Source: an uncultured Eubacteriales bacterium (GTDB lineage: Bacteria > Bacillota > Clostridia > Christensenellales > CAG-138). Taken from it: a DNA stretch of 64,000 nt. The notes beneath the pieces are model-generated. The model searched no databases, was not told where the DNA came from, and worked only from the letters and a program-made list of their open reading frames with translations. Made by a program: the position numbers and the translations under genes. Where the stretch lies: assembly GCA_902786465.1 (NCBI GenBank), contig CADACQ010000009.1, positions 87,501-151,500 of the forward strand, in the 5' to 3' direction. Below are positions 2,548 through 47,083 of the stretch, in pieces. Numbering within the stretch: position 1 is the first letter of the stretch; every line of letters begins with the position of its first letter.

Positions 2548-3018
2548 TTAAAACTCGATATACGGGCGGATGAGCGCCGCGTCCTTCTTCTGGATGGTGT
2601 GGTCCTTGCCGCCCTCGGTGCGCAGGACGAAGCTTGCTTCGTCGTAGCTCACCAGGGTGCCGTGAAGATGCTTCAGGCTCTTGCCCGAGGCCATCTTGAG
2701 GGGCGAATAGAGCTTCACCTCGATGGGCTTGCCCATGTTCCGCTCGTAGTCCTTCTCGAGCTTCAGCGGCCGGTCCAGGCCCAAACTGCTGACGGACAGG
2801 GTGTAGGCCTGCTCGATGGGGTCCGCCTCGTCCAGCACCGGCTCTAGGGCCCGGCTCACCGTTTCGCAGTCCTCGATGGTGACGCCGCCCTCCCGGTCGA
2901 TGTAGAAGGTCAGCACCCAGTCGCCGTACTCCTTCTGAAACTCCACGTCCCAGAGGACGAAGCCCAGCTTCTCCACCGTCTCCCGGCACAGGGATTCGCA
3001 CAGCTCAGTGGTCTTCAC
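2548..3018 (-). CDS. rimP: Ribosome maturation factor RimP
   Basis: 156 aa with a GTG start preceded by GAGGGGAGGAA. LWDVEF...YIDREGGVTIEDCE is typical of RimP. It is the first gene of the nusA operon. Confidence 0.9.
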   Translation of the reverse strand: MKTTELCESLCRETVEKLGFVLWDVEFQKEYGDWVLTFYIDREGGVTIEDCETVSRALEPVLDEADPIEQAYTLSVSSLGLDRPLKLEKDYERNMGKPIEVKLYSPLKMASGKSLKHLHGTLVSYDEASFVLRTEGGKDHTIQKKDAALIRPYIEF

Positions 3019-3034
3019 GTCGTTCCTCCCCTCT

Positions 3035-3063
3035 CATAAGGAAAGAGTGGGTCGCCCCACTCT
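3035..3063 (-). promoter_or_regulatory. Leader hairpin (attenuator candidate) upstream of rimP
   Basis: The minus-strand RNA AGAGTGGG-GCGA-CCCACTCT forms a perfect 8-bp stem and is followed by TTCCTTAT. It lies between the predicted promoter and the rimP RBS. Confidence 0.35.
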
Positions 3064-3092
3064 CCACACTTGTTTCTCATTCCAACGGTGGC

Positions 3093-3121
3093 AGTATACC
3101 ATAGTATGTTGAAAAGCGCAA
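3093..3121 (-). promoter_or_regulatory. Sigma-A-like promoter of the rimP-nusA-infB operon
   Basis: Minus strand reads TTGCGC - 17 nt - TATACT. Confidence 0.4.
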
Positions 3122-3138
3122 GAGAAATTTCAAAGGAT

Positions 3139-3732
3139 TTACAGGCGCGCAAGCGTGCCCGAAACCAGATACATGCTGTCGTCGGAAAGGACCTGGTCCA
3201 CGGCGACGAAGGGGGCCATGAGGGCGGCAAGGTCCTCGGCGGGCATGAGGCCGTAGGACACGTGGCTGGCGCCGCCCCGGTGGTGGTCGTTGATGCGCGC
3301 CCGGCTCATGCCGTGGGCCACGGTCAGGCGGCCGCCGGGCTTGAGCTGGCGGGACAGGTTCTCAAAGAGATTTTCAGGCTCGGAAAAGTGGGGAAAGGCG
3401 TTGTAGATCAGGATGCAGTCGAACATGCCGAAAGCCGCCTCCTGAGCGTCGGCGCAGAGGATCGTGACCCGATGGTCCCCGGCGAACTTGCTTTGGGCGA
3501 CCTCCGCCATCTTGGGGGATATGTCCACCGCCGTCACGTGGGCCGCACCCCGGCTCAGGTAGTCCGGGATCAGGACGCCGGTGCCCGTGGCCACGTCCAG
3601 CGCTTCCACGCCGGGGGCCACGCCCGCCATATCTAAAATGCGGGCGATCACCGGCTCGTTGCGGACCATGCCCGCGTCCCAGGTGGGGGCCAGGCGGTCA
3701 AAGAATTCGATCACGTCCCTGGTGTCGATCAT
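3139..3732 (-). CDS. Class I SAM-dependent methyltransferase
   Basis: 197 aa with motif I LDVATGTGVL and a downstream LKPGGRL. Confidence 0.8.
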   Translation of the reverse strand: MIDTRDVIEFFDRLAPTWDAGMVRNEPVIARILDMAGVAPGVEALDVATGTGVLIPDYLSRGAAHVTAVDISPKMAEVAQSKFAGDHRVTILCADAQEAAFGMFDCILIYNAFPHFSEPENLFENLSRQLKPGGRLTVAHGMSRARINDHHRGGASHVSYGLMPAEDLAALMAPFVAVDQVLSDDSMYLVSGTLARL

Positions 3733-38899: not shown

Positions 38900-38929
38900 A
38901 GTATAGCAAAGGGGCGGGCCCTCTGTCAA
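38900..38929 (-). promoter_or_regulatory. Sigma-A-like promoter of the ECF S-component gene
   Basis: Minus strand reads TTGACA - 18 nt - TATACT. The -35 overlaps the DUF3842 stop codon. Confidence 0.5.
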
Positions 38930-39342
38930 TCGGCTTTTTTTAGCAGCACCACGATCCGGCGCACGGCGTCCTCGATAAGCTCGCCCATGGGCCTCTCCCC
39001 CACCCCGGCCACCAGGGTATCGCACCGGTTCATGGGGATCAGCACCCGGACGGCATCGCTCCTGCCCACGGCCATGGCCATGGCGGGGGTCACCTCCCCC
39101 AGGAGGGCGTCCGCGATGACGATGCCCAGGGGGCCTGCGATGATCCTGGCTCGGCGGGCGTTGACGATGACGGCGTTCTCGCCGGTGGCGGCCCGGTCCG
39201 CGCCGCCCTTCAACATATTCTCGGTGGCGGTGGAGTTGGTGCCCACGGCGGTGATGTCCGCCTGGGGCAGGGCCTCCCGCAGCCTTTTGGTGAGAAGCTT
39301 CCCCAGGTTCCCGCCCTGGCCGTCGATGATCAGGATATCCAT
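38926..39342 (-). CDS. DUF3842 family protein
   Basis: 138 aa: MDILIIDGQGGNLGK...AVGTNSTATENMLKGGA...LIPMNRC. It lies 9 nt downstream of kamE. Confidence 0.8.
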   Translation of the reverse strand: MDILIIDGQGGNLGKLLTKRLREALPQADITAVGTNSTATENMLKGGADRAATGENAVIVNARRARIIAGPLGIVIADALLGEVTPAMAMAVGRSDAVRVLIPMNRCDTLVAGVGERPMGELIEDAVRRIVVLLKKAD

Positions 39343-39351
39343 GAACTCCTC

Positions 39352-40143
39352 CTATCGATCCAGGCCTCGCCGGGTCAGCTCCTCCACGGCGAAGGAGGCC
39401 ACGTCCTCGGCGAACTTGCGGGGGCCGAAGCCGGCGTCGAAGCCCAGCTCCTTGGCCAGCTCGTGGGTGATCCGGGCGCCGCCACAGATGACCACGAAAC
39501 GGGATCTGAGGCCCTCCGCCTCCAAAAGCTCGATGAGCTCGGTCATGTTCTGAATGTGCACGTCCTTCTGGGTCACGGTCTGGGACACCAGCAGCACGTC
39601 CGCATTCAGCTCCACGGCCTTCTTCACGAAGTCCTCGTTCTCCACCTGGGCCCCCAGGTTGTAGGCTTCGATCATCTCGTAGCGCTCGAGACCGTAGTGG
39701 CCGGCGAAGCCCTTCCGGTTCATGATGGCGTCGATGCCTACGGTGTGGGCGTCGGTGCCCGTGGACGCGCCCACGAAGACCAGCTTCCGGCCGAAGTGGC
39801 TGCGGATGTAGTCGTTGACCTCCTCCATGGACATGACGCTGCTCTCCACGGTCTTGACCTCGATGTGCTCGTAGTCCACCGTGTGGACGCAGGAGCCGTA
39901 GACCACGTAGAAGGTGAAGCTTTCGTCCAGCTTCACGGCCCCGGCCACGTTGGGCTCTTCGAGCCCCATCTTTCGGGCCAGCTGCCGGGCGGCCTCCATG
40001 CCCTTCTCGTCGTCCTTCACGGGCAGGGTGAAGCTCAGCTGCACCTTGCCGTCGTTCATGGTGTCGCCGTAGGCCTTGATCCGGGTCAAATCCAACGTCC
40101 GATCAAAGCTCTTGACGCTCATATCGTAGAGTCCGCCGCTCAT
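39352..40143 (-). CDS. kamE: Lysine 5,6-aminomutase beta subunit (B12-binding)
   Basis: 263 aa with a Rossmann-like B12-binding C-terminal half (VFVGASTGTDAHTVG). It overlaps the kamD stop. Confidence 0.9.
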   Translation of the reverse strand: MSGGLYDMSVKSFDRTLDLTRIKAYGDTMNDGKVQLSFTLPVKDDEKGMEAARQLARKMGLEEPNVAGAVKLDESFTFYVVYGSCVHTVDYEHIEVKTVESSVMSMEEVNDYIRSHFGRKLVFVGASTGTDAHTVGIDAIMNRKGFAGHYGLERYEMIEAYNLGAQVENEDFVKKAVELNADVLLVSQTVTQKDVHIQNMTELIELLEAEGLRSRFVVICGGARITHELAKELGFDAGFGPRKFAEDVASFAVEELTRRGLDR

Positions 40144-41696
40144 TTCGTGCCTCCTTCCAGCAGGGTCAGGAAGGGATTGTAGTACCCCTCGGCCCGCAGC
40201 ACCACGCCATTTAGGCCTTTGCCGCCGTCCCGCATGCGCTTGATGTCGGCGAAGGTGCCGTGCTCCAACGTGGCGAAGAGGCCGTCATGCTCGATCTTTT
40301 CCAGCAGGTCCGCGGCCTTGGTCAGCACCTCGTCCGCCCGATGGGCCATGATGCCGTCGGGCTTGAAGGTCATCTCCTCCCCCAGGTCCTTCATGGTGTT
40401 GAACACGTACCGGGCGTTCTCGATGGACAGGGCCCGATCCGACATGAAGGGGGTGTGGATGGCCTCGGTCATCATGCCCAGCAGGTGGATCTTCTGGCCG
40501 GTGAGGATGGTGACCATGTTGAAGAGGGCGTCCTGCACGTGACCCCTAAAGATGTTGCCCGTCATGAACTTGGTGGGCGGCATGTACTTCAAGGGGGCCT
40601 TGGGGAAGATCTCCCGGGCCATCTGGGCCTGAGCGAGCTCGTAGAGGAAGCCGTTCTCTCTCGCGGGGTCGATCTCGAAGGCGTGGCCCAAGCCCTGCTG
40701 CTCCTCGGGGAGCCCGGCGCACAGGGCGAACTGCTCGTTGAGGAACTGGCTGGCCAGGACCGTGTGGGCCTCCTCCACCGCGTCCGCCGTGGTGAGGTAG
40801 TTGTCCTCGCCCGTGTTGATGATGACGCCCGCGAAGGCGTTGATCCGGCGGGAGAAGCTCTGGTCGATCAGCGTCCGCTGCATGTTGATGTCCCTAAAGA
40901 GGATGCCGTAGAGGGCGTCGTTCAGCATCACGTCCAACCGCTCCAATGCACCCATGGCGGCGATCTCCGGCATGCACAGGCCCGAACAGTAGTTGCACAG
41001 GCGGATGTAGCGATGCTCCTCCGCCCCCACCTCGTCGAGAGCCGCCCGCATAAGGCGGAAGTTCTCCTGGGTGGCGTAGGTGCCGCCGAAGCCCTCGGTG
41101 GTGGCCCCGTAGGGCACGTAATCGAGGAGGCTCTGGCCAGTGGTGCGGATGACTGCGATCACGTCCGCCCCCTGTCGGGCGGCGGCCTTGGCCTGGACGA
41201 TGTCCTCGTAGATGTTGCCCGTGGCCACGATGACGTAGAGGTAGGGCCCCTCCTTGTCGCCGTACTCGGACAGGTACTCGTTCCGCCGGGCCACATTTTG
41301 GCGGATGCGCTCCGCGCTGGCTTTGGCTGCCGGCTCGATGGCGGCTTGGATCTCGTCGAAGCTGTGAGGGGCCACCTTTGAGAGGTCCAGCTCCCCCCGG
41401 TCCACGGCCTCGGCGATCTCTTGGGGCGAGAGGCCCGTCTCGGCCATGGCGTTGCCCAAGGCGTAGGCCGCCCCGTAGGGCAGCAGGCCCTTTTCGAGCA
41501 GGTGATCCACCACTACGTTGGGCAGGGGCACGCCCACCTCGTTCACGCCGTCGATGAGCAGCAGGCGGCACACCGCCCGTTCCACGGTGACCGTGGTGTG
41601 TCGGTCGATGAAGGCCTGGGTGTCCACCGCCACCTGACGGGCGGCGGCCCGGGCCCGGTCGACCTTATGTTGATCCAGATTCAGCTTGGATGCCAT
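40140..41696 (-). CDS. kamD: Lysine 5,6-aminomutase alpha subunit
   Basis: Trimmed to the ATG at 41696, which forms a TAATG overlap with the kamA stop. It is 518 aa: MASKLNLDQHKVDRARAAARQVA...LCNYCSGLCMPEIA. Confidence 0.9.
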   Translation of the reverse strand: MASKLNLDQHKVDRARAAARQVAVDTQAFIDRHTTVTVERAVCRLLLIDGVNEVGVPLPNVVVDHLLEKGLLPYGAAYALGNAMAETGLSPQEIAEAVDRGELDLSKVAPHSFDEIQAAIEPAAKASAERIRQNVARRNEYLSEYGDKEGPYLYVIVATGNIYEDIVQAKAAARQGADVIAVIRTTGQSLLDYVPYGATTEGFGGTYATQENFRLMRAALDEVGAEEHRYIRLCNYCSGLCMPEIAAMGALERLDVMLNDALYGILFRDINMQRTLIDQSFSRRINAFAGVIINTGEDNYLTTADAVEEAHTVLASQFLNEQFALCAGLPEEQQGLGHAFEIDPARENGFLYELAQAQMAREIFPKAPLKYMPPTKFMTGNIFRGHVQDALFNMVTILTGQKIHLLGMMTEAIHTPFMSDRALSIENARYVFNTMKDLGEEMTFKPDGIMAHRADEVLTKAADLLEKIEHDGLFATLEHGTFADIKRMRDGGKGLNGVVLRAEGYYNPFLTLLEGGTK

Positions 41697-42955
41697 TACT
41701 TTATCCGTTCCTCTCTCAACAGGCCCTTGGGCGTCATGTACTTCTGCTCCACGCCCTGCTCCAATCCGGCCACGCCTACCTTGCTCTCCTTCCGCTTGCC
41801 GGTGCACACGGGGCAGTGGCAGTTCTCCTCATAGTGGGTGGGCTCGGAATAGGTGGTGATGACGCCCTCGAAGTTCCGAAGGACGATCTTGCCGGGCTTC
41901 TGGGAGATCAGGTAGGTGGGCATCACCGGGGTCTTGCCGCCGCCGCCCGGGGCGTCCACCACGAAGGTGGGCACGCACAGGCCGCTGGTGTGGCCGCGAA
42001 GGCCCTCCATGATCTCGATGCCCTTCGATACCGGGGTGCGGAAGTGGCTGAGGCCCAGGGAGGGGTCGCAGGCGTAGATGTAGTAGGGGCGCACCCGGAT
42101 GTAGACCAGCTCGTTCACCAGCTTCTTCATCACGTGGACGCAGTCGTTGACGCCGGCGAGAAGCACGCTCTGGTTCCCCAGGGGGATGCCCGCGTCGGCG
42201 AGGCGCGCGCAGGCTGCCGCCGCCTCGGGGGTGATCTCGCTGGGGTGGTTGAAGTGAGTGTTGACCCAGATGGGATGGTACTTCTTCAGCGTGGCGCAGA
42301 GCTCCGGGGTGATCCGCTGGGGGCAAACCACGGGGGTGCGGGTGCCGATGCGGATGATCTCCACGTGCTCGATGGTCCGAAGCTCGGCGACGATCTGCTC
42401 CAGGAGGCCGTCGCCCAGCATCAGGGCGTCGCCGCCGGAGAGGAGCACGTCCCGGACCTCCTCATGCTGCCGGATGTACTCGATGCACTTTTTGATCTGC
42501 TCCATGGGCACGGCGCAGTCCGTCTGCCCGGCGAAGCGCCGGCGGGTGCAGTGGCGGCAGTACATGGAGCACTGGTCGGTGACCAGGAACAGCACCCGGT
42601 CGGGGTACCGATGGGTCAGGCCCTTCACAGGGGAATCCGTGTCCTCGTGGAGGGGGTCCGCCGCCTCGTAGGGAGCCGATTCCAGCTCGTGGGCCGTGGG
42701 CACCGCCTGGCGGCGGATGGGATCATAGGGATCGTTGAGGTCGATGAGGGACAGGTAGTAGGGGGTGATGGCCATGCGCAGCCGACCCAGGGTCCGGCGC
42801 ACGCCCTCTTCCTCTTCCTCGGTCAGGTTCATGTACTTCTTCAGGTCCTCCAGGGTCTCCACCCGGTTCTTGACCTGCCAGTGCCAGTCGTTCCACAGCT
42901 CATCCGGCACATCCCGGAACAGCCCGTTCTTCCGGGCGTAATTCTCAAAATGCAT
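41696..42955 (-). CDS. kamA: L-lysine 2,3-aminomutase (radical SAM)
   Basis: 419 aa with the CSMYCRHCTRR cluster motif, LLSGGDAL, and a C-terminal zinc Cys motif. Confidence 0.95.
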   Translation of the reverse strand: MHFENYARKNGLFRDVPDELWNDWHWQVKNRVETLEDLKKYMNLTEEEEEGVRRTLGRLRMAITPYYLSLIDLNDPYDPIRRQAVPTAHELESAPYEAADPLHEDTDSPVKGLTHRYPDRVLFLVTDQCSMYCRHCTRRRFAGQTDCAVPMEQIKKCIEYIRQHEEVRDVLLSGGDALMLGDGLLEQIVAELRTIEHVEIIRIGTRTPVVCPQRITPELCATLKKYHPIWVNTHFNHPSEITPEAAAACARLADAGIPLGNQSVLLAGVNDCVHVMKKLVNELVYIRVRPYYIYACDPSLGLSHFRTPVSKGIEIMEGLRGHTSGLCVPTFVVDAPGGGGKTPVMPTYLISQKPGKIVLRNFEGVITTYSEPTHYEENCHCPVCTGKRKESKVGVAGLEQGVEQKYMTPKGLLREERIK

Positions 42956-42978
42956 ATCCAGACTCCTTATGCAATGAT

Positions 42979-44019
42979 TTATACGTATTTTTCGTCGAAC
43001 AGGGCCCGCAGTTTGGGGTTCTCCCGAAGCACGTTCAGCGTGATCTCGGCGTGATCCTTGGTGTAGCCGTTGCCGATGATCATGTTCACGTCCTTGCCGA
43101 TGCCCTCGGCGCCCAGGGCCGCCTTGGTGAAGCTGGTGGCCATGGAGAAGAAGTACACGAGACCGTCGTCCCGCACGGGCAGGATGGCGCTCATCTCGCA
43201 GTTGGGCTGGTTCACGCAGCAGATGGAGATATCGTACTCCTTGCCGCCGTTGGCCGCCAGGGCCGCCTCCAGCACCGCCACGGGCTCCGTCGCGGAGGCC
43301 ACGATGACCTTATGGTACACGCCCAGCTCCATGAGGGCGGGGACCTGCTTGGGGTTCCTCACGAGGCCCACCACGTTGCCGGTGGGGCCCACCTTCTTCA
43401 TGGCCTCGTAGCCGCAGAGGACGGCGCTCTTGCCGTTGGCGCCCAGGATCAGGACGGAATCGCCCTCCTTAGGGAGCTTACGGGCCTGGGCGGGGGCGCC
43501 CGCTACGTCGAGGGCCGCGAGAGCCAACGCTTCGCTCATATCGTTGGGAAGCTTGGCGTAGATGCCGCTTTCGAAGAGGACGGCTTTGCCCACGATGTCC
43601 ACCCGGTCGATGTCCTTGTGGACGGCCAGGATCTTGTCGATCCTGAGCGGCGTCAGGGACAGGGACACCAGGGAGGCGATCTTGTCGCCCACCTTGAGGT
43701 CGCGATCCTTCAAGTCCTCGCCGATATAGGCCACGGTGCCGATGAACATGCCGCCGGAGCCGGTGACGGGGTTCTGCTGCTTGCCCCGCTCAGCTACGAT
43801 CCCCATGATCATCTCGCCGATCTTCTGCTCGTCGCCGCCGCAGGCCTCCTCGATCTGGGTGAAGGAGGCGGAGTCGATGTTCAGGGACTGGACGTCGCAG
43901 ATGATCTCGTTGGAGTAGAGGACGTCCATGTTGTTGTCGATCCGGTAAGCCGCCTGGGTGAGCACGCCCTTGGGCTCGATGACGCGATGGGTGCCGTACT
44001 TGTTGCCTTTGAGTGCCAT
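42979..44019 (-). CDS. kdd: L-erythro-3,5-diaminohexanoate dehydrogenase
   Basis: 346 aa starting ...YGTHRVIEPKGVLTQAAYRIDNNMDVLYSNEIICDVQSLNIDSASF. It sits between kamA and kce. Confidence 0.85.
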   Translation of the reverse strand: MALKGNKYGTHRVIEPKGVLTQAAYRIDNNMDVLYSNEIICDVQSLNIDSASFTQIEEACGGDEQKIGEMIMGIVAERGKQQNPVTGSGGMFIGTVAYIGEDLKDRDLKVGDKIASLVSLSLTPLRIDKILAVHKDIDRVDIVGKAVLFESGIYAKLPNDMSEALALAALDVAGAPAQARKLPKEGDSVLILGANGKSAVLCGYEAMKKVGPTGNVVGLVRNPKQVPALMELGVYHKVIVASATEPVAVLEAALAANGGKEYDISICCVNQPNCEMSAILPVRDDGLVYFFSMATSFTKAALGAEGIGKDVNMIIGNGYTKDHAEITLNVLRENPKLRALFDEKYV

Positions 44020-44070
44020 GAATTTTTCCTCCGTATAAAATGTATTTTTATAAGTTTATGCTGTATATAT

Positions 44071-44913
44071 TCACTTGACAGGGCAGTTGGGGCCGCCGAC
44101 TAAGCCCAGGATGGCCCGAGCTTCCGCGGGGGAGGCGATCTCCCGGCCCAGCTCCCGAGAAAGGCGCACCACCTTCTCCACCAGCTCGCCGTTGCTGCGG
44201 GCCTTCACACCCCGGGAGAGATAGAGATTGTCCTCGAAGCCCACCCGAACGTTGCCGCCCATGACAATGGCGGGGGCTGCCAGGGTGAAGGCGCTGCGGC
44301 CCACGCCTGTGGCCGTCCAGGTGGAGCCGGCGGGGATGGCGCTGTCCATCCAGACCAGGTTCTGGACCGTGGCGGGGGAACAGCCGGGGACGCCCAACAC
44401 GAAGTTGAACTGCATGGGCGCGCCGGGGACCTCCCCCTTGCGGGCCATGTTCAGGATGGTGTCGAGATGCCCCATCTCGAAGCACTCGTACTCGGGCTTG
44501 ATGCGGTTCTCGATCATGCGCTGGCCGAACGCCCGCATGGTGGGCATGGTGTTGTCGAAAATCTCGTCGCCGAAGTTGCAGGTGCCGCAATCCAGGGTGG
44601 CCATCTCCGGGAACAGCTCCGTGGGCTGGAGCCGCTCCTGGGGTTTCATGCCCGTGGCGCCGCCGGTGGAGGGGATCATGATGACGTCGGGTAGCTCCGC
44701 GCGGATGGCGTCCATGACCACCCTAAACCGCTCCCGATCCTGGGTGGGGGTGCCGTCGTCCCAGCGGACGTGGACGTGGATGATGGAAGCTCCCGCGTCG
44801 TAGGCGGACCGGGCCTCCCGGACCATCTCCTCTACGGTGTAGGGGACGGCTATGTTCTGCTGTTTGGTGACCTCTGCGCCGCAGATGGCGGCGGTGATGA
44901 TAAGCTTCTCCAT
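44071..44913 (-). CDS. kce: 3-keto-5-aminohexanoate cleavage enzyme (BKACE/DUF849)
   Basis: 280 aa: MEKLIITAAICGAEVTK...ASIIHVHVR. Confidence 0.9.
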   Translation of the reverse strand: MEKLIITAAICGAEVTKQQNIAVPYTVEEMVREARSAYDAGASIIHVHVRWDDGTPTQDRERFRVVMDAIRAELPDVIMIPSTGGATGMKPQERLQPTELFPEMATLDCGTCNFGDEIFDNTMPTMRAFGQRMIENRIKPEYECFEMGHLDTILNMARKGEVPGAPMQFNFVLGVPGCSPATVQNLVWMDSAIPAGSTWTATGVGRSAFTLAAPAIVMGGNVRVGFEDNLYLSRGVKARSNGELVEKVVRLSRELGREIASPAEARAILGLVGGPNCPVK

Positions 44914-44914
44914 A

Positions 44915-45298
44915 TCAGTTGAACCTTTGCTTGTCCTTGGGGGTCACGCAGGTGCCGCTGGCCCGGCAGACCAGGATGGGGTCAGACAGGACCTCCGCCG
45001 CGGAATCGTTGATGTCCGGCCGGGCGGTGATGACCTTGCGGGCCTCAAAGACCATCTTCCGGGAGGTGTTGCCCTCGGACACGATCTCGCCCGTGGCCTC
45101 GATGAAGTCTCCGGCGTAGACCGGCGCCTTGAACTCCACCATGTCGTAGGCGCAGAACAATCCCTCGTCCCCGTCCCGGCGGATTAGCAGCTCCGTCGCC
45201 ACGTCCCCGAACAGCTCCAACATCTTCGCGCCGTCCACCAGATTCCCGCCGTAATGGGCGTCGTGGGCGCTCATGCGCACTCGAATGGTCACTTGCAT
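44915..45298 (-). CDS. kal: 3-aminobutyryl-CoA ammonia-lyase (hotdog fold)
   Basis: 127 aa, the first gene after the riboswitch, with RBS AAGGAGG. Its size, hotdog-like sequence and context match Kal. Confidence 0.75.
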
Positions 45299-45322
45299 AC
45301 TCCTGCCTCCTTATACATTTTG

Positions 45323-45411
45323 AAATAGAAAAACACTATGGAAAACGAGACTTCCCATAGCGCTCCGTCCAAGAAAAAGGCTATCGACGCGGAATGACCG
45401 TATCGATAGCG
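45323..45411 (-). terminator. Two tandem intrinsic-terminator-like hairpins in the kal leader
   Basis: T1 (45371..45411) is GCTATCGA-N15-TCGATAGC followed by CTTTTTCTT. T2 (45323..45360) is CTATGGGAA-gtctcgt-TTTTCCATAG followed by TGTTTTTCTATTT. Confidence 0.5.
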
Positions 45412-45414
45412 CTT

Positions 45415-45580
45415 CGTCAACCAGACGACAGTGGCCGAGTTCTGTCCGCCCGGCCCCCAAGAAGCGGCAGCGGCGAAGCTCCCTCCTCTTTCGGCGGCTG
45501 CGCCCCTTTCCCGGGGGACCGTTCGCCCGTTATCCCCGCCGGGTACCCTGCGCGCCGCGCCTCTATCCACAATATTCTGT
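45415..45580 (-). promoter_or_regulatory. Lysine riboswitch (L-box) aptamer
   Basis: Minus strand reads GGATAGAGGCGCGGCGCGCAGGGTACCC...CCCCGGGAAAGGGGCGCAGCCGCCGAAAGAGGAGGG...GGCCACTGTCGTCTGG. The conserved L-box blocks AGAGGCGC, GAAAGGGG, GCCGAAAG and ACTGTC occur in the correct order and spacing. Confidence 0.8.
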
Positions 45581-45587
45581 TGTAGGT

Positions 45588-45617
45588 ATTGTATCAAAAA
45601 AGTTGCCGTTTTGTCAA
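45588..45617 (-). promoter_or_regulatory. Sigma-A-like promoter of the lysine fermentation operon
   Basis: Minus strand reads TTGACA - 18 nt - TACAAT. The -35 overlaps the stop codon of the MutS-like gene. Confidence 0.5.
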
Positions 45618-47083
45618 TCGGGACGGGGGATATATTCCCGCCGGATGGCCGAGAGCAAGCCCTCCTCCACCCCCAGGAGCTCGGCCACGGAGAGGGCCTT
45701 TTGGGGCACGGCGGCGTCGGTGATCTCCTCCACGCCGTAGTCCATGAACCGGCGCAGGACCGTGAGCTTGTCGGCCCCGGCTTCGATCATGCGGCGGCCC
45801 TCCGATACGCCCAGATCCCGGACGCCCCGGGTGAGGAACCGGCGGCTCGCCCGGGCGGCCACGGCCTCGTAGTGGGTGACGAAGAGGCAAATTGAACCGG
45901 AAGCGTTGAAGTAGGACAGGGCTCCCTGCTGGAGCTTCACGGCCTCGGCCGGGTTGGTGCCCCGGGCGAACTCGTCGAAGAGGACCAGGCAGAAGCCGCG
46001 CTGCACGGCCCGGGCGGCAGCGTCCGCGGCCATGAGCTCCCCACCGAAGGAGGACAGGCCCTCCCGACCGTCCTCCCCCTCCCCCCGGACCAGGCACAGG
46101 CAGTCGAAGAGGGGCACGGTCGAGGCGTCGGCGAAGGGGAACAAGCCGCAATGAGTGAGATACACGTTCAGGGCCAGGGTCTTGAGGCACACGCTCTTGC
46201 CGCCCATGTTGGCTCCGGTGAGCACGGCGGCCCCGGGAACGAGGGACAGACTGAGGGGCGTGAAGGCGGCCCCCTGGCGTTGGAGGCTGTCCCGGATGGC
46301 GGGATGGACCATGTTCACGAAGGACAGCTCCCTATCGGTGAGGGTGGGTTGGACGCCGCCCAGTTCCTGGACCAGGGCGGCTTTGGCAAAAAGCAGGTCC
46401 AGATGAGCGAGGGCGTCCAGGCTGTCAGCTATGGCTTTTCGGTAGGACACCAGCTTTTGGGACAGGGCCGCGCACAGGCGTTGCTCCGCCTCCGCCTCCC
46501 GGGCTACGATGGATGTGCGCTGCAGGAGCAGGGCTTCACGCTGGTCGCCGGCGGCCTGGGCGATCTGTTTTTCAATGATCCGCTTCTCCTCCCGGACGGC
46601 GGCCAGGTCAGCCGACCACTGGTCCCGCAGGGAGAAGGATGGGTTGCCGGAGTTTTCCGGGTCCAGGATAAAGAGGGCTTCGGGCACCTCCCGCAGGGCC
46701 AGGTCCTCCCACCGGGCGGAAGCCTGCAGGGCGGCGAAGTCCGCCGCCAGGCCCCGGAGGAGGAGCAGATACCGCTTCAGCTCGAAGAGCTCCACTTGGT
46801 CGAGGTCCCGCTGGCCCAGCCTCGTAACGGTGGCGCGGATATCCCGAAGCTGCATGAGCTCCTGCCGAAAGCCGCGGAGGGCGGGATGGTCCCCCAGGGC
46901 CACGGCCTTGCCCAGGTCCTCGAGCTCCCGCTGCAGGGCTTCCCGCTCAGATGGGGCATAGGGAGCCAGGGCCCGCTTTTTCTCCCGGCCCAGGGGGCTC
47001 AGGGGCAAAAGCCGGTCCAGCACGAAGTCGAGGCCTATATCCTGTTGCTGCTGCAAAGTCAATTCCATTGGGTTTCCTCCCAA
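45614..47083 (-). CDS. MutS-domain-V ATPase, candidate lysine 5,6-aminomutase reactivase ATPase (KamC-like)
   Basis: 489 aa with Walker A GANMGGKS and a LFDEFARGTNP motif as in MutS domain V. It has no mismatch-binding or Smr domains. It is adjacent to the kam operon. Confidence 0.7.
   Translation of the reverse strand: MGGNPMELTLQQQQDIGLDFVLDRLLPLSPLGREKKRALAPYAPSEREALQRELEDLGKAVALGDHPALRGFRQELMQLRDIRATVTRLGQRDLDQVELFELKRYLLLLRGLAADFAALQASARWEDLALREVPEALFILDPENSGNPSFSLRDQWSADLAAVREEKRIIEKQIAQAAGDQREALLLQRTSIVAREAEAEQRLCAALSQKLVSYRKAIADSLDALAHLDLLFAKAALVQELGGVQPTLTDRELSFVNMVHPAIRDSLQRQGAAFTPLSLSLVPGAAVLTGANMGGKSVCLKTLALNVYLTHCGLFPFADASTVPLFDCLCLVRGEGEDGREGLSSFGGELMAADAAARAVQRGFCLVLFDEFARGTNPAEAVKLQQGALSYFNASGSICLFVTHYEAVAARASRRFLTRGVRDLGVSEGRRMIEAGADKLTVLRRFMDYGVEEITDAAVPQKALSVAELLGVEEGLLSAIRREYIPRPD

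Follow-up and report, generated by a model that had tools for sequence, protein, structure and literature searches.

A predicted lysine-activated L-box with two serial terminators and a duplicated closing strand upstream of a lysine-fermentation operon

The lysine-fermentation operon and its leader

We analysed the leader of a lysine-fermentation operon from an uncultured Eubacteriales bacterium. The operon, kal-kce-kdd-kamA-kamD-kamE, occupies 39352..45298 of a 64-kb window (the whole stretch of DNA analysed) and, like its leader, is encoded on the minus strand. Its leader contains a single lysine riboswitch aptamer, or L-box, followed by two terminator hairpins, T1 and T2. The 3′ end of the aptamer, which includes the strand that closes helix P1, is repeated at the base of T2, and we propose that this duplicated closing strand couples both terminators to the one aptamer.

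The genes of the operon are kal (45298-44915), kce (44913-44071), kdd (44019-42979), kamA (42955-41696), kamD (open reading frame 41807-40140, with the family match starting at residue 41) and kamE (40143-39352). All six names had been assigned from the sequence alone in a first-pass annotation, and all six proteins score above the curated NCBIfam equivalog cut-offs. The nearest Kal sequences, at 96-97% identity, come from RUG472 and RUG11019, two metagenome-assembled genomes (MAGs) of uncultured rumen Clostridiales.

Transcription of the leader is predicted to start from a sigma-70-type promoter (45588..45617) with a -35 box TTGACA at 45617-45612, an 18-nucleotide (nt) spacer and a -10 box TACAAT at 45593-45588. 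This is the promoter recognised earlier, to which we add an upstream TG within the spacer. It matches 11 of 12 positions where shuffles of the region expect 0.2 such sites, and both boxes are unchanged across six relatives. At the other end of the leader (45296..45312), the Shine-Dalgarno sequence AAGGAGG (45312-45306) and the kal ATG (45298-45296) stay free of pairing in all predicted states, which argues that control is transcriptional.

The covariance model of the lysine riboswitch (Rfam RF00168) aligns to 45399..45573 over helices P1 to P5 with a score of 64.2 bits (gathering score, 30 bits; E = 1.8e-14), untruncated and covering model positions 1-182 of 182. It is the sole Rfam match in the 64-kb window, which holds no second Rfam family. 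All five helices of the five-way junction are paired in the alignment, with a few non-canonical pairs. Where AGAGGNGC, GCCGAA, CUGUC and GAGNGCUA are the junction blocks expected of an L-box, the leader has AGAGGCGC, GCCGAAAG, ACUGUC and AGCGCUA; the first-pass annotation had noted L-box blocks, ACTGTC among them, in canonical order. On this match, we conclude that 45399-45573 is a genuine lysine-riboswitch aptamer, which presumably binds lysine.

Covariance-model alignment and folding both place the P1 5′ strand, GGAUAG, at 45563..45568, extendable to UGUGGAUAG (45571-45563). In the RF00168 model it pairs (45568-45563) with CUAUCG (45409-45404) through five standard pairs and one G.G. The P5 5′ strand, UCGUC, lies at 45424..45428. 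The 3′ end of the aptamer at 45404..45418, here called copy 1, consists of the P5 3′ strand GACGA, the J5/1 segment AGCG and the P1 3′ strand CUAUCG.

Terminator T1 (45371..45410; hairpin -18.0 kcal/mol) has the stem GCUAUCGAU.ACGG / CCGC.GUCGAUAGC at 45410-45380 and the U tract CUUUUUCUU at 45379-45371. It had been described before as GCUAUCGA-N15-UCGAUAGC followed by the same U tract, and hairpin and tract are both present. Its 5′ arm (45410-45402) is made of the last two bases of J5/1 and the P1 3′ strand, and this shared strand allows either P1 or T1 to form, but not both. The earlier proposal of ON-type wiring depended on this overlap, and the RF00168 model sites the P1 3′ strand exactly on the T1 5′ arm and not elsewhere. 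No antiterminator intervenes between the two, and T1 and T2 are each a G+C-rich hairpin followed by a U tract.

Stepwise folding agrees with this arrangement. The P1-closed aptamer is the minimum-energy structure until the 3′ arm of T1 has been transcribed, after which T1 wins (-88.8 kcal/mol, versus -82.7 kcal/mol with P1 enforced). Ligand binding and tertiary contacts could plausibly cover this gap of about 6 kcal/mol. Given the wiring and the predicted folding, the leader is most likely a transcriptional L-box that lysine would switch ON ahead of the lysine-fermentation genes.

The second terminator and the repeated closing strand

Terminator T2 (45323..45365; hairpin -17.1 kcal/mol) has the core stem CUAUGGGAAG-5-UUUUCCAUAG at 45360-45336, extendable to 45365-45331, and the U-rich tail UGUUUUUCUAUUU at 45335-45323. 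The hairpin had been noticed in the first-pass annotation and left unexplained there. A terminator scan reports T2 alone in this region (45366..45330); shuffles expect 1.3 terminator sites, so the scan shows no enrichment and is uninformative for T2, and T1 is not listed by it because of its bulged stem and long loop. Conservation is more telling. Among the close relatives that we call the window's family, T1 and T2 are both conserved as hairpins that vary only in the loop, and in a second family, from the human gut, T2 contains compensatory pairs.

The base of the T2 5′ arm is formed by a second copy of the aptamer 3′ end. Copy 2, GACGGAGCGCUAUGG (45355..45369), repeats the P5 3′ strand, J5/1 and the top of the P1 3′ strand, and is identical to copy 1, GACGAAGCGCUAUCG, at 13 of 15 positions (GACGG-AGCG-CUAUGG versus GACGA-AGCG-CUAUCG). 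The repeated octamer reported before, AGCGCUAU, is real and forms part of this longer 15-nt repeat. In a 16-mer test against the downstream region the repeat scores 13/16, and none of 2,000 shuffles of that region does as well. Copy 2 also retains the partners of copy 1: the P5 5′ side UCGUCUG can pair with UGGACGG of copy 2 at 7 of 7 positions, wobbles included, and P1 can form four pairs with it. There is one complete RF00168 match with only its last 15 nt repeated, where a tandem riboswitch would have at least two complete aptamers.

We found no conserved element between T1 and T2 besides the aptamer-derived repeat, and the spacer is shorter than 10 nt in the window's family. Comparing copies across loci is uninformative (mean score within loci 10.3, between loci 9.8), since J5/1 and CUAU are conserved in all L-boxes. 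Two further pairings of the T2 region were considered and set aside. A third CUAU, in the T2 U tract (UUUUUCUAUUU), was rejected as a designed element because its C is lost in the close relatives L090 and L113 and because any purine-rich strand pairs with U runs; and GACG in copy 2 could pair with CGUC of the T1 3′ arm in the window only, other lineages lacking this possibility. The minimum-energy structure of the full leader pairs UUUUUCUAUUUCAAAAUG (45323-45335) with the P1 5′ strand (45563-45575), which is probably incidental.

To place this arrangement we collected 80 kal loci (L005-L084) from one-genome-per-species contigs, using a 10-sequence Kal alignment to find related loci. A direct search for Kal homologues returned only relatives more than 90% identical, and a search of protein representatives was used for diversity. 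RF00168 lies directly upstream of kal in 22 of the 80 loci, all from Clostridia or Fusobacteria. The other 58 loci (Bacteroidales, Myxococcota, Thermotogota, Spirochaetota and others) have no RF00168 match within 2.5 kb, and only Clostridia and Fusobacteria appear to place this pathway under a lysine riboswitch.

In all 22 riboswitch-bearing loci, J5/1 and the P1 3′ strand are part of a downstream hairpin, which extends the ON reading beyond the window. That reading is clear in 19 of them, and these fall into three architectures. Type I leaders have one terminator overlapping P1 (L009, L020, L027, L028, L038, L073 and L077). Type II leaders, from Clostridium species (L040, L055, L062, L082 and L083), have a P1-overlapping hairpin without a good U tract, followed by a terminator. 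Type III leaders have two terminators and the duplicated strand, as in the window (L005, L006, L017, L019, L041, L054 and L061, of which L019 is doubtful because its second hairpin has no U tract).

The three remaining leaders, from Fusobacterium, are atypical. In two of them (L025:2219-2500 and L036:2234-2500), a downstream CCUCUAUUUUUUAU, some 30 nt ahead of the Shine-Dalgarno sequence, shows perfect complementarity to the P1 5′ strand and J1/2 (AUAAAAAAUAGAGG), and a very weak first hairpin follows P1. Such leaders may work by a different logic from those in Clostridia. In the Eubacterium sp. MAG of L019, kal and kce are each preceded by a complete ON-type lysine riboswitch (2110-2284 and 2966-3143), the second of which sits in the 325-nt kal-kce gap with its own P1-overlapping terminator.

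A pattern scan of metagenomes, from which about 50 of 80 loci were dropped as chance matches because they had no aptamer motifs, added further variants of the window's family, the leader L092 and the human-gut family (L085, L103, L106, L153 and L162). In the gut family the duplicated-strand leader precedes kce, not kal. There (L103:3560-4000), kamC is followed by its own intrinsic terminator and then by a TTGACA-17-TATAGT promoter, and the core around the repeat is identical in 24 metagenome contigs.

Altogether, the duplicated-strand arrangement recurs in at least eight lineages. The 16-mer test gives 13/16 in the window, L005, L017 (Christensenellales; GGAUGGAGAGCUAUUG and GGAUGGUGCGCUAUCG) and L041 (Lachnospiraceae), and 15/16 in L054 (Clostridiales SUG10), where CAUGAAGCGCUAUUG occurs twice exactly; shuffle p values are at most 0.001. 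It is weaker, at 11/16, in L006, in L061 (Oscillospiraceae; CAUGAAGCGCUGUUC and CGUGGUGCGCUAUUC) and in L019. In every lineage the repeat starts with the P5 3′ strand and ends at, or just past, the P1 3′ strand. The inner stems and loops of T1 and T2, and the spacers, are unrelated between lineages.

Proposed coupling of the second terminator to the aptamer

We suggest that the leader works as a chain of exclusive helices built from five segments: the P1 5′ strand (segment 1), copy 1 (segment 2), the T1 3′ arm with its U tract (segment 3), copy 2 (segment 4) and the T2 3′ arm (segment 5). Segment 4 resembles segment 2, so segment 3 is complementary to both. With lysine, P1 (1:2) would be locked and T1 (2:3) blocked; the freed segment 3 would then pair with segment 4 as an antiterminator, T2 (4:5) would be hindered and RNA polymerase would reach kal. 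Without lysine, T1 and T2 would both form, and the serial terminators would hold expression at a very low basal level. Alternation between 1:2 with 3:4 and 2:3 with 4:5 would make both terminators lysine-dependent. An uncoupled second terminator would do no more than cap induction.

Folding offers support for the relay that varies among lineages. When P1 is enforced in the window and the transcript ends before the T2 3′ arm, GAUAGCCUUU.UC pairs with GA.GGAG.CGCUAU (ViennaRNA). The predicted antiterminator amounts to -10 to -12.6 kcal/mol in the window's family and to -19 kcal/mol in the gut family. It outweighs T2 in L041 (-27.1 versus -19.9 kcal/mol) and L054 (-25.4 versus -16.7 kcal/mol), in both of which the spacer folds into a hairpin of its own that brings segments 3 and 4 together. 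On the same kind of prediction, the Clostridium type II leader is a four-element relay (at about 2280-2500 in each locus) of P1, a hairpin without a U tract, an antiterminator and a terminator: with the P1 3′ strand unavailable, the lower 3′ arm of the first hairpin is released and pairs at the 5′ edge of the terminator, with a stretch that resembles the P1 3′ strand in degenerate form.

Neither the antiterminator nor the T2 stem involves the copied P5 3′ strand, and the relay leaves its presence in the repeat unexplained. A second route may account for it. Once a transcript has passed T1 with the T1 hairpin formed, copy 2 could rebuild the complete aptamer, with that hairpin sitting in the P5 loop, and lysine would be sensed again at T2. 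We think that copy 2 can close the aptamer in this way, as it differs from copy 1 at only 2 of 15 positions and as a related leader tolerates an insertion at the same place. That leader (L028:2179-2420, from Ca. Avichristensenella intestinipullorum) aligns to RF00168 as a complete aptamer, at 61.2 bits, across a 67-nt insertion in the P5 loop. The insertion starts with AGAUGCGCUAUACCG, a copy of AUGCGCUAU corresponding to J5/1 and the top of the P1 3′ strand, and continues with a GC-rich hairpin that has no U tract. L028 looks like a type III leader with a decayed first terminator and offers, on its sequence, a natural example of the proposed geometry, with a distal copy closing the aptamer.

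The covariation of copy 2 points in the same direction. Across 15 distinct leaders, 92.4% of the cells that compare copy 2 with the P5 5′ strand are paired, against 31-47% in slid controls and 86.7% for the native copy 1, and four pairs show compensatory double changes, AU to GC and CG to GC among them. The two copies differ independently eight times in the five core P5 positions. Seven of these differences are Watson-Crick-to-wobble changes that keep the pair (L006, GAUGA versus GACGG; L061, CAUGA versus CGUGG; one each in L019, L092 and the window's family), and the sole break is one in L041. With a neutral preservation probability that we put at about 0.3 per change, we estimate the chance of seven in eight at p ~0.001. 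Where copy 2 discriminates between its possible partners, it fits the P1 5′ strand and mismatches the T1 3′ arm in L061 (A, position 3), L041 (U, position 7) and L085/L153 (C, position 5); position 7 of L054 (G) does the opposite and favours the T1 3′ arm.

Constrained folding to the end of T2 compared the aptamer closed by copy 2 with T1 formed, on the one hand, with the aptamer closed by copy 1 with T2 formed, on the other. The first state is favoured in the window (-105.2 versus -103.5 kcal/mol), L054 (-96.3 versus -90.4), L085 (-114.2 versus -109.5) and L017 (-97.2 versus -92.1), and the second in L005 (-109.1 versus -112.6). By this measure the state closed by copy 2 is as good as the other or lies within a few kcal/mol of it.

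Several observations weigh against these proposals. The antiterminator of the window's family (-10 kcal/mol) falls short of T2 (-15.5 kcal/mol), and in the window itself T2 still wins thermodynamically with P1 enforced once its 3′ arm is complete, so that antitermination would there depend on kinetics. With copy 2, P1 has only four standard pairs in the window, L017 and L019, one fewer than the five that copy 1 gives in the window. An aptamer that has bound lysine would probably be slow to swap copy 1 for copy 2, and the second route would then serve only those transcripts in which T1 has formed. The two platform units of the window are alike over a 49-nt period in their outer parts (GACGAAGCGCUAU...AUAGCCUUUUUCUU versus GACGGAGCGCUAU...AUAGUGUUUUUCUA); with this apparent tandem duplication, part of the similarity between the copies could be inherited. 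The lineages that carry the repeat are not fully independent, and those from metagenomes are a selected set, as the search pattern fixed AGCGCTAT in copy 1 and GCGCTAT in copy 2. Finally, L092 (reverse strand, ~1395-1650) has no good U tract after the copy-2 hairpin and L006 has a degenerate one (UACUUAUUUUC, L006:2430-2470), so that the second element may act differently, or only weakly, in these two leaders.

Weighing these points, we hold with moderate confidence that the leader is an ON-type L-box whose two terminators are coupled to one aptamer through the duplicated closing strand, with both routes to antitermination at T2 being predictions from sequence comparison and folding. The guess of a three-way alternative pairing made in the first-pass annotation stands in spirit: the repeat is a conserved copy of the aptamer 3′ end that links T2 to the sensor. 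The more specific proposal, in which either of two 3′ strands, each continuous with a terminator of its own, could close a single aptamer core that would be read first at T1 and then at T2, we put forward only tentatively.

The closest competitor to the favoured explanation, which we find possible but rather doubtful, is that the relay acts by itself: pairing of the T1 3′ arm with copy 2 would suffice to antiterminate T2, the aptamer would never be closed by copy 2, and the copied P5 3′ strand would be a functionless passenger of duplication. The strong antiterminators predicted in L041 and L054 fit such a relay, as do the Clostridium relatives that form one without any P5 copy, the resemblance of the window's platform units to a 49-nt tandem duplication and the four-pair P1 with copy 2 in several lineages. 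Against it, the copied P5 3′ strand, although part of neither the antiterminator nor the T2 stem, tracks the lineage-specific P5 5′ strand through the types GACGG, GGAUGG, GAUGG and CAUGA/CGUGG, and seven of the eight differences between copies keep pairing. The discriminating positions in L061, L041 and L085 match P1 and not the T1 arm, and the aptamer of L028 is closed by a distal copy.

It is improbable, in our judgement, that T2 is unregulated and T1 alone responds to lysine, with T2 only lowering overall expression as a constitutive attenuator or back-up terminator or as what remains of a duplication. T2 does form in the window prediction even with P1 enforced, and the window's family offers no compensatory double changes. 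Placed ahead of catabolic genes, a terminator that always acts would limit induction, as noted above. In addition, the position of the repeat, precisely on the T2 5′ arm, is shared by at least eight lineages that have no resemblance left in inner stems, loops or spacers, and the lower stem of T2, which would be free to covary if the hairpin alone mattered, is instead identical to the aptamer 3′ end.

Much less likely still is a two-input AND gate in which T2 senses a protein, a small RNA or another ligand. Tandem riboswitches with two different inputs are known (PMC9481103), and protein binding at the conserved AGCGCUAU is conceivable. The window has no second Rfam family, the aptamer-derived repeat is the only conserved element between T1 and T2, with less than 10 nt of spacer in the window's family, and RNA partners already present in the leader account for the repeat. 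We give almost no credence to an OFF switch like those of biosynthetic L-boxes, with termination promoted by lysine: the majority of characterised lysine riboswitches are of this type (PMC11477304), but here the P1 3′ strand is itself the terminator 5′ arm, leaving no separate antiterminator for P1 to destroy, the genes downstream consume lysine, and genes in this context have been assigned positive control in published comparative studies (PMC5584792, PMC2258182).

Known regulatory systems and neighbouring features

The pbuE (ydhL) adenine riboswitch is the textbook transcriptional ON switch. As in the leader described here, its P1 3′ strand overlaps the 5′ arm of an intrinsic terminator, and ligand binding comes too late once the terminator 3′ arm has been made. 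Unlike this leader, pbuE has one terminator, no duplicated closing strand and an aptamer of the purine three-way-junction class. The proposed chain of helices also resembles the trp leader (1:2 / 2:3 / 3:4), in which neighbouring segments pair exclusively and the state of the first helix propagates along the chain. The input here would be a ligand-bound aptamer in place of a stalled ribosome, and the chain is one element longer and has two terminators.

Lysine riboswitches with ON logic that bury parts of a terminator stem were attributed to Rodionov 2003 by Barrick and Breaker 2007 (PMC2258182). Mukherjee 2017 (PMC5584792) lists riboswitches before kal and kce as positively regulating in C. 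sticklandii, F. nucleatum and Thermoanaerobacter. The activating LYS elements at lysine-utilisation genes that the first-pass annotation mentioned are indeed described as predictions in these two papers. Given such predictions before kal, kce and kamA, neither the riboswitch nor the ON logic of the present leader is new in kind. Natural ON-type lysine riboswitches in the accessible literature are computational predictions only. The leader shares with them the RF00168 aptamer, the link to lysine fermentation and a ligand-stabilised P1 that would bury the terminator stem; it differs in that the accessible accounts describe one riboswitch and mention neither a second terminator nor a repeat of the aptamer 3′ end.

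Tandem riboswitches with complete units for the same ligand (thiamine pyrophosphate, adenosylcobalamin or lysine) were surveyed by Sherlock et al. 2022 (PMC9481103). The 14 lysine cases are all double and complete, and the classification used in the survey does not provide for a single-site aptamer that serves several expression platforms. Like those tandems, the present leader has two serial terminators for one ligand and would be expected to show a lower basal level and a steeper response. The tandems repeat the whole aptamer, whereas here one RF00168 match serves both terminators and the last 15 nt are repeated. A single aptamer with two terminators connected by a repeated closing strand is not described in the literature that we could search; an earlier mention, in Rodionov 2003, is possible. 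Judged from the sequences compared, the duplicated-strand, tandem-terminator design is conserved in rumen and human-gut Clostridia and apparently undescribed.

The duplicated closing strand suggests that one aptamer may gate two serial terminators, giving the tightness of a tandem riboswitch without duplication of the sensor. If re-closure by copy 2 is correct, the leader would be a natural riboswitch with one aptamer and two expression platforms, and about 50 extra nt, compared with a whole second aptamer, would buy two sequential checkpoints and a steeper and tighter response. Rumen and human-gut Clostridia carry the design ahead of genes that ferment lysine to butyrate and acetate, and it probably determines how much lysine must be present before these bacteria begin to consume it. 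It also bears on the folding kinetics of riboswitches, through strand exchange and relay antitermination, and on synthetic biology, where tight, low-leak ON switches are hard to build. With its clean promoter, two terminators and defined operon, this compact leader is a good experimental substrate for an ON-type lysine riboswitch.

Directly 3′ of kamE, also on the minus strand, is a 138-amino-acid open reading frame (38926-39342) with no NCBIfam match. Beyond it lie genes for an energy-coupling factor (ECF)-type S component and an ATP-binding cassette (ABC) transporter that resembles a putative B6 transporter family, with scores below the cut-offs. Upstream of the riboswitch, on the same strand, are kamB (48021-47059) and kamC (47083-45614), the lysine 5,6-aminomutase reactivase genes. 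The -35 box of the riboswitch promoter (45612-45617) shares bases with the kamC stop codon (45614), and no terminator was seen between kamC and the promoter. Read-through from kamB-kamC may therefore also enter the riboswitch.

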